A stretch of 64,000 bases of DNA. Source: Octopus vulgaris (lineage: Eukaryota). Positions 3,485 through 61,320 of this stretch are shown piece after piece; the first letter of the stretch is position 1, and each line of letters begins with the position of its first letter. The notes beneath the pieces were generated by a model. It was not told the DNA's origin. It was given only the letters and a program-made list of their open reading frames with translations, and searched no databases. The DNA is taken from positions 36,580,001-36,644,000 of the forward strand of contig OX597831.1 in assembly GCA_951406725.2 (NCBI GenBank), read 5' to 3'. The translations under genes were made by a program, and so were the position numbers.

Positions 3485-3864
3485 CACATATATATGTATA
3501 TATATATGCAATTCAAAGAAGGTCAGAGGTTGTGAACCCAATCAACTAAGGGATAGTATCTATCCAATATACTGCTGGTAGAATACCTAATTAATACACA
3601 AGTGTTGGTTATTGCATGGCAATTACACTACTGAATATAATAATTAGGCGAGGGTAATAAGTGGTTTTTACCCTTAATTTATATGGCAAGAAAAAAATGG
3701 AGGGAATCCAGAGGTAGAATTCATCAGCTGTTACAAATTATATTACCTTTGGATTCCCTCCATTTTCTTCTTGCCATATATATAGATATAGATATAGATA
3801 TATATATATATATATACATACATATATATATTTATATGTATATATATATGTATATGTATATGTA

Positions 3865-4904: not shown

Positions 4905-5244
4905 AACCAGCCAAGATCCCTGGTCTGGTGGTACGTAAAAAGCACTATCCGACTCGTGGCCGATGCCAGTGCCGCCTCGACTGGCTTCCGTGCCGGTGGC
5001 ACATAAAATACACCAATCCGACCATGGCCGTTGCCAGCCTCACCTGGCACCTGTGCAGGTAGCACGTAAAAAGCACCCACTACACTCACGGAGTGGTTGG
5101 TGTTAGGAAGGGCATCCAGCTGTAGAAACATTGCCAGATAAGATTGGAGCCTGGTGCAGCCTTCTGGCTTCCCAGATCCCCGGTCGAACCGTCCAACACA
5201 TGCTAGCATGGAGAACGAACGTTAAACGATGATGATGATGATGA

Positions 5245-5250
<6 letters not shown>
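4905..5250 (+). mobile_element. RTE-type LINE 3' end (family C) with (GAT)n tail
   Basis: ggttggtgttaggaagggcatccagctgtagaaac...gttaaacgatgatgat; internal gtaaaaagcac repeats. Linked to an RTE ORF2 C-terminus in the 42588-43230 copy. Confidence 0.75.
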
Positions 5251-5275
<25 letters not shown>

Positions 5276-5278
<3 letters not shown>

Positions 5279-5840
5279 TCATCATCATCATCGTCGTTTA
5301 ACGTCCACTTTCCATGCTAGCATGGTTTGGATGATTTGACTGAATACTGGTGAACCAGATGGCTGCACCAGGCTCCAATCTTGATCTGGCAGAGTTTCTA
5401 CAGCTGGATGTCCTTCCTAACGCCAACCACTCTGAGAGTGTAAAGGGTGCTTTTATGTGTCACCGGCACAAGGGTCAGTCAAGCAGAACTGGCAACGGCC
5501 ACTCTCAAATGGTGTTTCTTACATGCCACCTGCACAGGAGCCAGTCCAGTGGCACTGGCAACGGCTTTGCTTGAATGTTTTTTCACGTGCCACCGGCACA
5601 AGTGCCAGTAATGCAATGCTGGTAACGATCACACTTGAATGATGCTTTTTACGTGCCACTGGCATGGAAGGCAACAATCACACTCAGATGGTGCTCTTAG
5701 CACTCCACTACCACAGATGCCAGTCATCAAATTTAATTTTGATTTTCACTTGCCTCAACAGGTCTTCAAAAGCAGAGTTTAGTGTCCAATGAAGGAAAGG
5801 TACGCATAAGTGGGCTGGTTACACCCCTGGTATAGGAACA
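5276..5840 (-). mobile_element. RTE-type LINE 3' end (family C)
   Basis: (CAT)n-cgtttaacgtcc...; tail-to-tail with the 4905-5250 copy. Confidence 0.75.
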
Positions 5841-17171: not shown

Positions 17172-17331
17172 TATGGTGTTACCTTAATTTTTATCATTTA
17201 CTGCAGCAGTATTTGTTCTTCAGTGCAAGCTGGTTTCATGCTGACTTCTACTCCAGCTTTTCTGTCTCATATCTTTTGACATCTTGTCCTCCGTATTGTG
17301 TCTCCTTCTGGCTTCATAGACACTACTCTTC

Positions 17332-17648
17332 CCAGCCATTCCTTAGCTCTCTGGAATCTGTCCAGCCATAATCTTAGCTCTCTGAAATCTGCCCATCCAT
17401 AATCTTAGCTCTCTGAAATCTGCCCATCCATAATCTTAGCTCTCTGAAATTTGCCCATCCATAATCTTAGCTCTCTGGAATCTGCCCATCCATAACCTTA
17501 CCTCTCTGGAATCTGACCAGCCATAATCTTATTTCTTTTGAATCTGCCCATCCATAATCTTAGCTCTTTGGACTCTGCCCATCCATAATCTTAGCTCTTT
17601 GAAATCTAGGCATCCATAATCTTACCTATCTGGAATCTGGCCAGCCAT
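17332..17648. repeat. 31-bp minisatellite, about 10 copies
   Basis: Unit ccataatcttagctctctgaaatctgcccat (e.g. 17366-17396, next at 17397). Confidence 0.95.
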
Positions 17649-17690
17649 GTTTTACCTGCTTCTCACTAATTGTCCATGTTTGTCCTGCAG

Positions 17691-22822: not shown

Positions 22823-22831
<9 letters not shown>

Positions 22832-23105
22832 ATATTTTGGAATGGTCATTTTGCCAGTTTAGCCAATAAAAACACACGCACTATATATTTGGTGTTATTT
22901 TGCTTCAGTGTTATTCATTTTTTACATTAATCTTAATCGGCCGAAATAAGATTAAGATTAATGTAAAAAATAAAAACACTGAAGCAAAGTAACACCAAAT
23001 ATATAGTGCATGTGTTTTTATTGGCTAAACTGGCAAAATAACCATTCCAAAATACAACAATATCTGTTTCAACACACGACTTCACATAAAAAAATCTTGC
23101 ACAAC
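22823..23105 (+). mobile_element. (TA)n-flanked fold-back element; same family as 48473-48990
   Basis: Arm 22823-22938 is the reverse complement of about 22950-23062. Confidence 0.85.
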
Positions 23106-25240: not shown

Positions 25241-25549
25241 GAAACAGTTCAGACAGATATTGTATAGCCTTGTATATTTGGTCGGCTTGAGGCTATAGTA
25301 GAACACACTTGCCCAAGATACCACACAGTGGGACTGAACCCAGGAACATGTGGTTTGTAAGCAAGCCACTTACCACACAGCCACTCCTATGCCTATATAT
25401 ATATATATATATATATATTATATTAAATTAGAGATAAAACCACTATTAGGCAAATCATACAATGAAAAACTTAAGCCAATACATAAGATAATTAATTTAT
25501 ATTATTTTAAATATATATCAAAATTATTAAAAAAAGATAATTAGTATAA

Positions 25550-25612
25550 CACTACGAGTGTTTCATGGCTGTCCAATTCTTAAAATTTCGAGTTACAGTC
25601 ATTCTTCAGGTG
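25550..25612 (-). ncRNA. Type I hammerhead ribozyme motif in a (TA)n-abutting element (about 25420-25800)
   Basis: Minus strand cac-CTGAAGA-atgactgt...acagccat-GAA-Acactcg-T-A-gtg; GUA site, predicted cut between 25553 and 25552. Confidence 0.65.
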
Positions 25613-25919
25613 ATTTAAATATTTAACTTAGCGAGGTTTAATCAATTTCGTAGACAATAATGGACAACGTATGAGGGTTTGAAAATTTCTTACTGAACAA
25701 CCACGCAGATGATTTGTCTATAGGTGCCACATGTCAGATGCAAGCAAATAACACCATGAGGAAGCAGTTGTTTACAACCCAGCAAAATCCTAAGGAAATA
25801 TGAACTCACTCACACAGACACAGATACATAAGCATGCATGCATACATACATACATACATACATACATACATACATACATACATACATACATACATACATA
25901 CACACATACATATATGTGT

Positions 25920-33815: not shown

Positions 33816-33977
33816 GAAAGAATCATCATTTAACATCCCTTTCCCATGCTGGAAAGGGTTGAATGGTTTGATGGGAACTGGCAAGGCCAGGAGCCGCAAC
33901 AGGTCCCATTGTTTTTTTGGCATGGGTTCTACATCTGGATGCCTTCCTAACATCAGTCACTTTACAGAGAATACTAG

Positions 33978-35328
33978 GAGCTTTTTACGTGGCACCAGCA
34001 CCAGTGCTTTTTATGTGACACCAGCACCAAGTGCATTTTACATGGCACCAACTCCAGTGCTTTTTATGTGACACCAGCACCAAGTACATTTTACATGGCA
34101 CCAGCACCAGTACTTTTTATGTGACATCAGCTCCAAGTACATTTTACATGGTACCAGCAAGAGTGCTTTTTATGTAACACCAGCACCAAGTACATTTTAC
34201 ATGGCACCAGCACCAGTGCTTTTTATGTGACACCAGCTCCAAGTACATTTTACATGGTACCAGTAAGAGTGCTTTTTATGTGACACCAGCACCAAGTACA
34301 TTTTACATGGCACCAGCACCAGTGCTTTTTATGTGACACCAGCACCAAGTACATTTTACATGACCCCCAGTACCAGTGCTTTTTATGTGACACCAGAACC
34401 AAGTGCATTTTACATGTCACCAGCACCAGTGCTTTTTATGTGACACCAGCTCCAAGTACATTTTACATGGTACCAGCACCAGTGCTTTTTATGTGACACC
34501 AGCACCAAGTACATTTTACATGGCACCAGCACCAGTGCTTTTTATGTGACACCAGCACCAAGTACATTTTACATGACCCCCAGTACCAGTGCTTTTTATG
34601 TGACACCAGCACCAAGTGCATTTTACATGGTACCAGCACCAGTGCTTTTTATGTGACACCAGCACCAAGTACATTTTACATGTCACCAACACCAGTGCTT
34701 TTTATGTGACACCAGCACCAAGTACATTTTGCATGGCACCAGCAAGAGTGCTTTTTATGTGACACCAGCACCAAGTACATTTTACATGACCCCCAGTACC
34801 AGTGCTTTTTATGTGACACCAGCTCCAAGTACATTTTACATGGCACCAGCAAGAGTGCTTTTTATGTGACACCAGCACCAAGTACATTTTACATGGCACC
34901 AGCACCAGTGCTTTTTATGTGACATCAGCTCCAAGTACATTTTACATGGTACCAGTAAGAGTGCTTTTTATGTGACACCAGCACCAAGTACATTTTACAT
35001 GACCCCCAGCACCAATGCTTTTTATGTGACACCAGCACCAAGTGCATTTTACATGGTACCAGCACCAGTGCTTTTTATGTGACACCAACACCAAGTACAT
35101 TTTACATGTCACCAGCACCAGTGCATTTTATGTGACACCAGCACCAAGTACATTTTGCTTGGCACCAGCCACAGTGCTTTTTATGTGACACCAGCACCAA
35201 GTACATTTTACATGGCACCAGCACCGGCACCAGCACCAAGTACATTTTGCATGGCACCAGCACCATTGCTTTTTGTGTGACACCAGCACCAAGTACATTT
35301 TAGATGATACCAGCACCAGTGCCTTTTA
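33978..35328. repeat. 53-bp dimeric minisatellite (26+27 bp), about 25 units, inside a family C RTE 3' UTR
   Basis: ccagcaccagtgctttttatgtgaca + ccagcaccaagtacattttacatggca; preceded by family C end 33823-33977. Confidence 0.95.
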
Positions 35329-36356
35329 CCAGGCTTACCTAATATACTTTTCTCTTTACTTAGGATAATAGTGATATGAAGGAAATTTGGCTGCTGTTTC
35401 TAGCATGTTGAGCAACGATGTGTAAACTCCCTCTATAAGTATTGTTTATCCTGGGTCTACCTGACTGGGAGTTGTGATTATAGATTTTCCTGACATTGCT
35501 ATCTTTTATCATTGTGTAGTGTATTTTCCTGTGTCGTTCTTTTGTTAAGATGGTAGAATTTGAAATGAGTGAATCTGCTTACTATTTTTAGCAGCTCAAG
35601 CAACCACAAAGATGCTCTCTCATTAGCTCACATCTCTCTTATCAAGCTTGGTACATCACATTACCTTTCACTTAGTTTGAATCTTTTTTGACTTGACTTT
35701 GATCTTACCTTTCATTTTTCTCATCTTTTCTTTGTTTTTTTTGTATTCTTCACGACAAGATAAATTCAAATGATTTCTACTAAAATTAGTCTTGAGCCAA
35801 ATAAAAATCAAATCACTCAAAATAAATGAATTGAAAATAGCCTTTTGGTTTGGTGATGTACTTCAAACATGAAATAACGCTAAATCATTTTAAATTTAGT
35901 GTTAAGCTTAATGAATTCATTCTCTTCCTTCACCTTTACCGAAATATAAATCTATCTATATACCAAATATATATGCAAATGTAAATTCTATAAACAGAGA
36001 GAAGGAGAGAGAGAGAGACAGAGAGAGAGAGGAAGGCGAACATCTAATGTTAATGTTTTCCTTATATCTTTCAAGTATAGAATCATATCTTGGAAAAATC
36101 ATAAATTAAATAATAAAATCACAGTTAAAGAAATAAGTATTTCCTTTCTTTCTGGCACCAAACCTCTTATTTTACCAAAATAGATATCCAAACTAAATCA
36201 TTATTTTTCTTAGTGTCTATGCTGTATTAATCTACTTTATCATAGCTACGGTGGAGTATCTCAGAGAAAATCATGGATTCGAATTGATTCTGGAATAGTT
36301 GGACAAAAGTGCTGATTGAATCTAAATTAAATAGGGATGTAACAATTCCAATGCAG

Positions 36357-49049: not shown

Positions 49050-49213
49050 CTTTATTTAAAGCAGCAGAAAATTCAACAAAATCTGTTACTCTGAGTTTCT
49101 CGTTGCCGTTCATCATACAGTTTTTGCTAGAATCTAGCAAAAACTGTCTGATGAACGGCAACGAGAAACTCAGAGTAACAGATTTTGTTAATTTTCTGCT
49201 GCTTTAAATAAAG
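49050..49213. repeat. Near-perfect 164-bp palindrome centred at 49132
   Basis: ...cagtttttgctaga|a|tctagcaaaaactg...; (TA)n on the left, element continues to about 49285 then (TA)n. Confidence 0.95.
49144..49181 (+). ncRNA. Minimal type I hammerhead ribozyme motif
   Basis: ctgt-CTGATGA-a-cg-gcaa-cg-a-GAA-Actc-a-gagT-A-acag; GUA site; stem I extendable (caaaa/ttttg). Confidence 0.75.
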
Positions 49214-49697: not shown

Positions 49698-50929
49698 TTT
49701 TATTCACCTCTTCTTACCTGGTGCTCTTATATATTTACCAGCCTTCAAGACCTGGCCATGACCACTCATTTTGTTATTTCAACTGACCTCAGTCTTGCTT
49801 CTAACACCCTTCCTCTGCCCACTGCCCCCACTCTTTACTTCCTTCCTCACCATTTACCTCACACACCACTCACACCTTCTCTTCCTGACTTTTCCGTCTT
49901 CTTCTTCTCTGTCTGTCTCTCTCTCTCTCTCTCTCCCTATCATTTATTTTAGCTTTCACTTGCAATTTTATGACCAAAGTAATAATACATCTATGTAATT
50001 CCCCGCCACCACCTCTGTCTCTTCCGAAGAACAAATGGCCGAATTATTAGGTACCTTCCCGTCTTTGTCAAATCAACTCAGTGAACTTTTCTAAAAGCAC
50101 TCCTACAAGTAGCACATTAATTAGTAGAACTCCACCAAGTTATTCTTGGCTTCTTCTATAGAAAGATGTAAAAAGGCCATCGGCACTAAAGCACCTTTAC
50201 TAAAATGTCTGGCAAAAGAGCATGGATTTTAGAATAATTGCATCTTTAAGTGAGGGAAGGAATGGATACTGTCACCTAGTCAGATAGAAAATGATAATTC
50301 TTTTCATTTTATCTTTTGAGATAAAATAGTTACTTTAAAGTGAAGTATCTTCAGTCCTGAAAACTAGAAAGTGTTTATTATCCTATTTATTATGTATTTT
50401 TCACACTTTAAAGAAGAACGCATTGAAATCTAGGGAAATATGACTTCTTTATTTACTTTTTATATTAACTTTCATAAAGGTTGAGGCACAAATGAGTCGA
50501 GAGAGTGGCTAAACGTTAAAACAAACAACAGATGTGTGTAGGAGGAATGACCATTGTGTTGGAACATGGATATGTGGTATGAATGGACAATTAGCGTTGG
50601 GTCATGATGATAATGACAGAAAAGCACTCCAAACACATGGAAAGAAATGATAGAACTAAGTTCAGTTGAGAGGACACAAAACTGAGGTTATAGATAATCT
50701 ATGAATACAGCAAAGCTGTCCAAAGCCTACAAACATGGAAAACTGGATGTTAAAATAATGTTGATGATGACAATGATGATGATGACATCTTTATTAAAGA
50801 AATACAATTTACCAAATTCAAAGAATGTGGTGGTATGTTGGACTAGCTTTACTCATACCTGTATAACAATTCTATATTGTATTATAATGTGCTTATAGTA
50901 TGTATGCATATATATATATATATATATAT

Positions 50930-51268
50930 AATAAAATATTAGGGAATAAATCCAAACTTACAGGGAAAAATCAGATTTAGGATTGAATCCAATTTTATAG
51001 TAAAATATTATATTATATTAAATTAGAGATAAAACCACTATTAGGCAAATCATACAATGAAAAACTTAAGCCAATACATAAGATTAATTCATTTATATTA
51101 TTTAAATATATATCAAAATTATTAAAAAAGATAATTAATATAACACATTATATTAATTATCTTTTTTAATAATTTTGATATATATCTAAATAATATAAAT
51201 TAATTAATCTTATGTATTGGCTTAAGTTTTTCATTGTATGATTTTCCTAATAGTGGTTTTATCTCTAA

Positions 51269-51277
<9 letters not shown>
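50930..51277 (-). mobile_element. (TA)n-flanked fold-back copy of the 25420 family
   Basis: Arms about 51014-51143 and 51148-51277 with a 4-nt loop (caca); the left arm matches 25420-25552. Confidence 0.85.
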
Positions 51278-51332
<55 letters not shown>

Positions 51333-52335: not shown

Positions 52336-52596
52336 TATTCTATCTATTATATACGTTTTTATTATTATTTTTTGCAATTTACTTAATCTTTGACATTTTA
52401 TTTTTATTTTAATTTTAATATATCTATTATATGTAATTTCCTAGATGGTGTAATTTAATTGTCCATTTTGAATTGATAAAAGGTGGGTTTTTTTCTAATT
52501 TTTTTATATATATATTATATTGTGTGAAATTTGATTTAGTATTTCTAAATTGAATTTTTTCCCAGTAAGTTTGGATTTTATTCCCTCAAATAATAA

Positions 52597-52647
<51 letters not shown>

Positions 52648-60134: not shown

Positions 60135-61320
60135 TGAAAAAAAGAAAGGACTCATCCAAAGTGTTGCTGAATAGTTCTTGCTTCAGGTAAAAGAAAACAC
60201 AGATAGAAGATCATTTAATTACGATTTTATTCAACATATTCCCTTCTCAGCTTCACACACTGATTGTAGCAGTCCTTCGGTTTTTCTGACCCCTGTAAAA
60301 GAACTCTGAAGGTTGGACCTGCAACCAGACCTTTCATGATACCCTTAAAGCTAGGAACTTTTCAGCACCCTCTAGTAATTGTGAGAGAGAAAAAGATGAC
60401 AGTACAGGCTGAGGAACTCCATTAGCCATGGAGATCTTAAAGAGTAACAGAAAAAAGAAAGCAACTTGCCCAAGAGGGGGCTGAAAAGTTCCTGCTTCAG
60501 GTAAAAGAAAATGCAAGCAGATCAGTTAATTACAATTTTATTCAACATATTCTCCTCTAAGCTTCACACACTTATTGTAGCAGTCCTTCAGTTTTTCTAA
60601 GCCCTGTAAAAAAAACTCTGAAGGTTGGACCTGCAACCAGACCTTTCACAATACCCTTAAAGCTAGGAACTTTTCAGCACCCTCTAGTAATTGTGAGAGA
60701 AAAAAAGAAGACAGTACAGGCTGAGGAACCCCATTAGCCAAGGAGATCTTAAAGAGTAACAGAAAAAAAAAGCAACTTGTCCAAGAAGGGGCTGGAAATT
60801 TCCTGCTTCAGGTAAAAGAAAATGCAAGCAGATCAGTTAATTACAATTTTATTCAACATATTCTCCTCTCAGCTTCACACACTTATTGTAGCATTCCTTC
60901 AGTTTTTCTAAGCCCTGTAAAAAAAAACTCTGAAGGTTGGACCTGCAACCAGACCCTTCATAATACCCTTAAAGCTAGGAACTTTTCAGCATCCTCTCGT
61001 AGGTGTGAGAGAAAGAAAGAAGACAGTACAGGCTGAGGAACCCCATTAGCCATGGAGATCTTAAAGAGTAACAGAAAAAAGAAAGGACTTGTCCAAGGGG
61101 GTGCTGAAAATTCCTGCTTTGGGTAAAAGAAAATACTGGAGGATCAGTTTATTACAATTTTATTCAACATATTCCTCTCACAGATTCACACACTTATTGT
61201 AGTTTTCTAAGCCCAGTAAAAGAACTCAGAAGGTTGGGCCTTCGACCAGACCTTTCACAATACCCTGAAAGCCAGGAACTTTTCAGCACCCCCTCATAGT
61301 TGTGAGAGAAAGAAAGAAAA
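60135..61320. repeat. Tandem array of about 312-bp units (about 4), each a mariner-type MITE plus about 90-bp flank
   Basis: TIR ..gctgaaaagttcctgctt / aaagctaggaacttttcagcaccc; unit anchors at 60167, 60481, 60792, 61104. Confidence 0.9.

Follow-up and report, generated by a model that had tools for sequence, protein, structure and literature searches.

The hairpin at positions 50930 to 51277 of the window (the whole 64,000-nt stretch of the Octopus vulgaris genome analyzed here) is best read as a head-to-head pair of 5'-truncated pLTR copies of a Penelope-like element (PLE) in a (TA)n tract. One arm ends at the predicted hammerhead cut site and likely comes from a self-cleaved template, and the two arms were likely primed separately; we put the probability of this reading at roughly 0.7. 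Because a coincidence with the cut site at a single locus means little, the weight of the argument is carried by a genome-wide count of arm starts.

The hairpin locus and its sister copy

Arm positions were read on a natural copy of the family, L024, which served as the ruler, and were numbered so that +1 is the first base after the predicted hammerhead cut, which falls after GUA. Judged from sequence, the window holds two pLTR pieces of one Hydra-type PLE. The simpler one is a solo, spliced, untailed copy (25420..25646, minus strand), with exon 1 at about 25646-25623 and exon 2 from 25622 down. Motif and alignment place in it a type I minimal hammerhead (25545..25612, minus strand) with CUGAAGA at 25609-25603, a 7-bp helix II, GAAA at 25564-25561, and GUA at 25555-25553, coordinates that agree with the cut between 25553 and 25552 predicted in a first-pass annotation of this DNA. 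Stem III is altered and non-palindromic in this copy, a change seen in 1 of 68 copies. As the annotation had also noted, homology between the 50930 copy and this one stops at 51146, the equivalent of 25552, and the sequence beyond turns into a near-perfect hairpin. The two copies align at 96% up to that base. The hairpin has arms of ~130 bp with 3 mismatches and a 4-nt loop; folded as DNA it reaches -120.9 kcal/mol (z -29.75), a value matched by 0 of 100 shuffles.

Read from left to right, the locus begins with an (AT)n target tract recognizable in the sequence (50908..50929), followed on the minus strand by a ~75-nt tail (50930..51004, ruler 242-316), the outer end of which would be the distal start site of reverse transcription, given the bimodal arm 3' ends described below. 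The body of the tailed arm (51005..51146, minus strand; ruler 98-316, 98% identity, row L299) has +1 as its 5'-most base, at 51146. Sequence and fold place the hairpin loop and junction at 51144..51147, with 51147 a single base of neither arm (gap 1). By alignment, the untailed inverted arm (51148..51277, plus strand) begins at +4, 3 nt beyond the cut site, with this one extra base before it, and extends to the family's internal end point (ruler ~230-241). Its 3' edge at 51277 blurs into TA repeats up to 51288, within the (TA)n target sequence on the right side (51278..51330); as regards a target-site duplication, both flanks are TA repeats. The annotation had missed the tail, which is absent from the right arm, as well as the +4 start of the right arm and the changed stem III of the 25420 copy.

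Elsewhere in the window, a fold-back insertion of a different family lies between TA tracts (22825-23065, arms ~110 bp) and is likely a Penelope-type inverted pair, and an older relative of the tail region of the 50930 family, ~75% identical, adjoins a TA tract at 52483-52605. Tandem arrays of 53 nt and 31 nt, together with three motif matches at 312-nt spacing, were found at 33942-35358, 17279-17679, and 60409-61100. Short hairpins with weak miRNA-family scores occur at 5208-5315, 49094-49170, and 3680-3780, at least the first of them centered on a TA tract.

Arm starts at the predicted cut site

The candidate ribozyme has the type I hammerhead order of CUGANGA, GAAA, and NUH core. Its CUGANGA core is kept in 66 of 68 copies, and the stretch from GAAA to GUA, with a palindromic stem III, is unchanged in 59 of 68. 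In the proposed helices I-III, 92% of cells are paired, compared with 15-50% when the helices are slid. A search for covariation in these helices found no two-sided change, the full hammerhead was absent from the minimum free energy fold of the monomer (z +1.2), and an Rfam search returned no hammerhead match, only microsatellite-driven miRNA matches. The predicted motif fits the minimal, dimer-dependent type described in PMC4209133, with which it has in common a short helix I, a helix II of 7-8 bp, and a minimal palindromic helix III suited to dimers; the intron adjoins the motif as it does in the Penelope element of Drosophila virilis, and low in vitro activity is reported for such hammerheads (PMC4209133).

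For the breakpoint count, we selected arms whose 5' end lies in -11..+1. There were 115 matches, of which 100 were listed, giving 98 distinct arms; 96 of these were present in the re-extraction used for the null test. Raw BLAST end points were rejected for this mapping, because a variable T run yields false peaks at ruler 115-118. The first-pass annotation had named a spike at the GUA site, as opposed to an even spread of breakpoints, as support for self-cleavage, and the count bears this out. Among the matches listed, 29 of 96 arms start exactly at +1, compared with 3.9 expected under a uniform-breakpoint null with real flanks (p 1e-17), and such starts are about seven times as frequent as expected from the positions just upstream. 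The remaining listed arms start at -1 (6), at -2 (28), and over the nine positions from -3 to -11 (33). Taken together, the +1, -1, and -2 classes hold 63 of the 96 listed arms, versus 22.5 expected, the -2 class being ambiguous, since a flanking TA looks like these two bases. Starts at -1, the position expected for a stall at stem III, show no excess among the matches listed (6 versus 6.2 expected), and microhomology-weighted nulls lower the expectation at +1 still further. A strict hand filter, which removed five arms flanked by TG repeats, two whose partner could supply the G, and one duplicate, left 21 of the listed arms at +1 (p 3e-10). The peak is present in both subfamilies (15 of 57 arms in A and 14 of 41 in B, among the matches listed). 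In a downstream matched control, a hand count over 200 listed rows of 202 and 128 matches, exact starts at the G of +3 numbered 4, versus 20 at the G of +1 (one-sided binomial about 8e-4, hand-calculated). Untemplated extra bases were found at 16 of 26 cut-site junctions versus 23 of 49 in the comparison set (p 0.33), with homopolymer slips inflating both counts.

A single truncated master copy as the source of the peak is ruled out by the tree. The 46 cut-starting rows are scattered among 73 read-through rows, with 29 label changes, at least 9 of them forced; a single origin of the cut-starting arms was recovered in 0% of bootstrap trees, and 5 sets of identical sequences span both groups. 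The cut label shows slight clustering (3-7 of 500 shuffles gave values as low), and a few of these labels belong to intact copies with a substitution beside the site. Given a peak that is found in both subfamilies and throughout the tree, the +1 arms were likely copied from self-cleaved RNA, in keeping with the ribozyme-cut template proposed in the annotation, albeit for only a few percent of arms.

Frequency of cut-site starts and other influences on breakpoints

In subfamily B, 12 of 100 listed rows (of 202) start at +1. We estimate that this route accounts for about 2.4% of the 1,009 arms reaching +9, or up to ~6% when ambiguous classes and a filter correction are included, which makes cut templates a minority, at about 2-6% of the arms that reach the site. 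Among unselected inverted pairs, 1 of 18 has an arm at +1. The biggest local peak lies instead at +7..+9, with about 35 of 100 listed rows, at a microhomology site where the TA of the element matches the target. This first TA downstream of the cut in subfamily B is a junction hot spot, about 3-4 times as strong as other TA sites by a rough hand count, and could reflect trimming of cut-end cDNAs or pausing of the reverse transcriptase (RT) at helix I. As a general matter, the +4..+9 cluster was not supported as a shadow of cleavage, the control interval +18..+25 being about as dense: 187 matches there versus 202 of 1,009 in -2..+9. Because these rates are similar, only the exact +1 class is special. 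The upstream control gave 22 of 916, a count that may be too low and that we use only loosely, because its strand skew of 20:2 is unexplained. Background truncation would supply by chance roughly 15-30% of the +1 arms, and the 50930 arm is therefore probably, not certainly, a cleavage product.

The +1 peak might be real but have another cause, such as stalling of the RT on structured RNA, cutting by a host nuclease, transcription from an alternative start, or a sequence preference in end-joining. The larger peak at +7..+9 does indicate that joining preferences shape breakpoints strongly, and the upstream control, with the skew just given, suggests that truncation is rarer across the GC-richer ribozyme core. 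However, the +1 peak is confined to a single base and is blunt, which microhomology disfavors; it falls on the base fixed beforehand by the hammerhead consensus; the counts at -1, +2, and +3 are not raised; and the scatter over the tree leaves no room for one master copy. We therefore regard such a cause as unlikely and continue with self-cleavage as the preferred source of the +1 arms.

One tail per inverted pair

The set of inverted pairs comprises 87 rows drawn from L001-L301 (84 named loci, two segmental duplicates among them), most of them chosen for ends near the cut site and none for tail status. Exactly one arm is tailed in 80 of the 87 rows, with no tail in 5 and two tails in 2. The 3' ends of the 174 arms are bimodal, 78 lying at ruler 230-244 and 78 at 310-316. 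Among the 70 asymmetric rows, the longer arm, which reaches further 5', lacks the tail in 39 (37 once two duplicates are removed) and carries it in 31; the arms are equal in another 10. At three loci (L192, L249, and L255), the partner arm is essentially tail only. An inverted pair at L232 (G000:C4:64477191-64477236) has both arms starting no more than 2 nt from the cut site, with a short insert between them.

These data bear on the second half of the interpretation offered in the first-pass annotation, namely that a single cDNA, having reached the ribozyme-cut end of its RNA template, snapped back on itself and served as the primer for the inverted arm. A tail that is present in the shorter arm and missing from the longer means that the shorter arm cannot be a copy of the longer; this was seen in 39 of the 70 asymmetric rows, versus 0 expected from copying. 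The peak is also equally strong in arms that have no inverted partner: among the matches listed, 31 of 46 solo arms and 34 of 52 inverted-pair arms belong to the +1, -1, and -2 classes, so the cut does not cause the inversion. In the 50930 copy itself, the longer arm is the tailed one, and the inverted arm lies fully inside the +1 arm and starts 3 nt away, a geometry that allows snap-back; yet this inverted arm stops at the fixed internal point at which solo untailed copies also stop. A recurrent 4-nt-overlap junction near the cut site (L182, L238, L271, and L284) and small hairpin-like insertions at some junctions (L249 and L253) would also suit snap-back priming, which we nevertheless consider improbable. 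Thus, the ribozyme-cut template is supported, indirectly, by the peak, whereas snap-back is not supported for the family, though it is geometrically possible in the 50930 copy. From the one-tail rule and the two fixed 3' ends, which match those in PMC11167929, we infer that two separately primed cDNAs, one per strand and start site and joined at their 3' ends, likely lie behind the inverted arms.

The parent element

A 32-mer from the 3' end of the pLTR family has at least 4,762 exact matches in the 2.8-Gb genome, and all of the first 100 listed were fetched. Short pLTR copies share a 5' boundary that lies about 230 nt before the 3' end. In long copies, an intron (890 nt, GT..AG in L304) separates a 27-nt first exon from the exon with the hammerhead. 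Spliced and intron-retaining pLTR copies are found in one genome (L304:1637-2784; L303-L326), with an intron of about 640 to 1,130 nt. Among 74 hammerhead-bearing arms, 44 have the short form that lacks the GT..AG intron, 13 have the long form, and 17 have another form. The self-priming of an antisense template proposed for Penelope inverted repeats in PMC3846280 is thereby rendered very improbable here. Many long copies do keep the intron, which that model was meant to explain; however, the intron-less arms, together with a +1 peak that matches a ribozyme present on the sense strand only, point to sense templates.

One locus, L329, carries a 745-aa ORF with RT (YRDD) and GIY-YIG domains, and in L332 an ORF lies between two direct pLTRs. 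The GIY-YIG domain of L329 matched PF01541 above the cut-off (E 6.7e-5), and a Pfam search with the RT part and with the whole ORF gave no match. The ORF has 902 homologues, many with the YRDD core, one named homologue being from the cephalopod Argonauta. In the L329 ORF, DKG is changed to DKT (SDKTRN), as defined for the Hydra clade in PMC8557442; the linker is CxCX5C (CTCRDKTKC); CxxC (CYLC) and CxH (CRH) occur near the C-terminus; and there is no CCHH between GIY and YIG, with at most one Cys there. As for the N-terminal RWK motif, L329 is 5'-truncated and the start of the L332 ORF is broken, while homologues have RWK or RWR. Copies of the 50930 family are inserted into (TA)n. These motifs and the (TA)n targeting would place the element in the Hydra clade of C-terminal EN+ PLEs (Craig et al. 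2021, PMC8557442), an assignment drawn from the published description of the clade. The homology common to long copies exceeds 4 kb, beyond the usual <3 kb of Hydra, which is a tendency and not diagnostic.

Two other assignments were rejected. The Neptune and Nematis clades require a CX2-5CxxC linker and a CCHH motif, neither of which is found in L329, and a non-LTR retrozyme needs tandem non-coding hammerhead units, while the copies here derive from a coding element and occur as solo or inverted pieces.

Long Asn-rich inserts precede the endonuclease in the ORF (L329:3393-5627), as PMC3846280 describes for rotifer Penelope families. A second PLE family, ~76% identical, lies upstream of the element in L327 (L327:115-1524). 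Several copies (L042, L046, L050, L054-L060, and others) have the common 3' end but a divergent, very AT-rich 5' part, and apparently represent further subfamilies with expanded inserts.

Discussion

The copies directly show their anatomy, the peak at +1, the rule of one tail per pair, splicing, and an ORF in the parent element, and the scheme that we favor builds on these. It begins with a sense transcript, often spliced, in which the hammerhead would precede two fixed sites of RT initiation. A few percent of these templates would be cut by the hammerhead after GUA, probably as a dimer formed through the palindromic stem III. The element endonuclease would nick both strands of a TA tract, and the RT would start one cDNA at each of its two sites, so that one arm has a tail and the other does not. 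A cDNA copied from cut RNA would run off at +1, and the two cDNA 3' ends would then be united by end-joining, with short homologies or added bases. We lean, with somewhat less confidence than in our reading of the 50930 locus, toward a broader view in which the genome holds a base-resolution record of germline self-cleavage by a PLE hammerhead. The decapped 5'-OH RNA, which would keep both RT start sites and the ORF, would still serve a dimeric RT-endonuclease as template, with one cDNA primed per target strand and start site.

Several parts of this scheme were known. Inverted pLTRs with a tail on one side, insertion at TA, and hammerheads within the pLTR had all been described, as had ribozyme-defined 5' junctions for R2. 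With the Hydra clade as described in PMC8557442, the octopus element has in common an RT followed by GIY-YIG, DKT, CxCX5C, CxxC/CxH, and no CCHH, along with (TA)n targeting, a pLTR hammerhead, an inverted 5'-truncated copy, and a one-sided tail. Compared with Hydra elements, usually <3 kb, it is longer, with a long 3' region, an 890-nt pLTR intron, and an Asn-rich ORF insert, and its tail is ~75 nt rather than the 30-40 nt of the clade (PMC8557442). The accessible text of that paper calls the function of the hammerhead unclear and gives no breakpoint mapping.

For the Poseidon element PAc of the green anole, the Penelope protein, a predicted dimer, cuts and extends both strands and starts reverse transcription at two tail-defining sites (Frangieh et al. 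2024, PMC11167929). PAc and the octopus element have in common two tail-defining RT start sites, AT-rich targets, and a hammerhead upstream of the start sites; cleavage and extension of both strands, shown for PAc, would apply to the octopus element as well (PMC11167929). According to the accessible text of the same paper, the hammerhead is dispensable for insertion in vitro, and no anole RNA-seq reads end at its cut site. In contrast, octopus genomic 5' ends peak at the cut site, which lies about 283 nt before the inferred ATG rather than inside the ORF as in PAc (PMC11167929).

The HDV-like ribozyme of R2 offers a precedent, because its cut is recorded in genomic 5' junctions (Eickbush et al. 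2013, PMC3774820). Both systems have 5' junctions at the ribozyme cut, variable additions, and joins at microhomologies. However, the cut sets the regular 5' end of all full-length R2 copies, whereas the octopus cut, made by a different ribozyme, would be a minority end within the 5' UTR (PMC3774820). Metazoan non-LTR retrozymes likewise have type I hammerhead repeats related to PLE pLTRs, but they are ORF-less tandem arrays, whereas the octopus copies come from a coding element and lie dispersed as pLTR pieces, solo or inverted (PMC7229834; bioRxiv 10.64898/2026.07.22.740005). A targeted literature search, covering titles and mostly open-access main texts, found no report of genomic ends at a PLE hammerhead cut site, of evidence for in vivo cleavage, or of counts bearing on two-site priming.

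If true, these results would provide in vivo evidence for PLE hammerhead activity, together with an account of the inverted-repeat-plus-tail signature based on two priming events on a sense template. The rule of one tail per pair narrows the options for the insertion mechanism: it favors two cDNAs, each primed on sense RNA, over snap-back or self-priming on an antisense template. Looking for a peak of insertion ends at the precise cut base is inexpensive and can be done for any assembled genome; in this octopus, the peak suggests that the hammerhead cuts in vivo, on a minority of templates.
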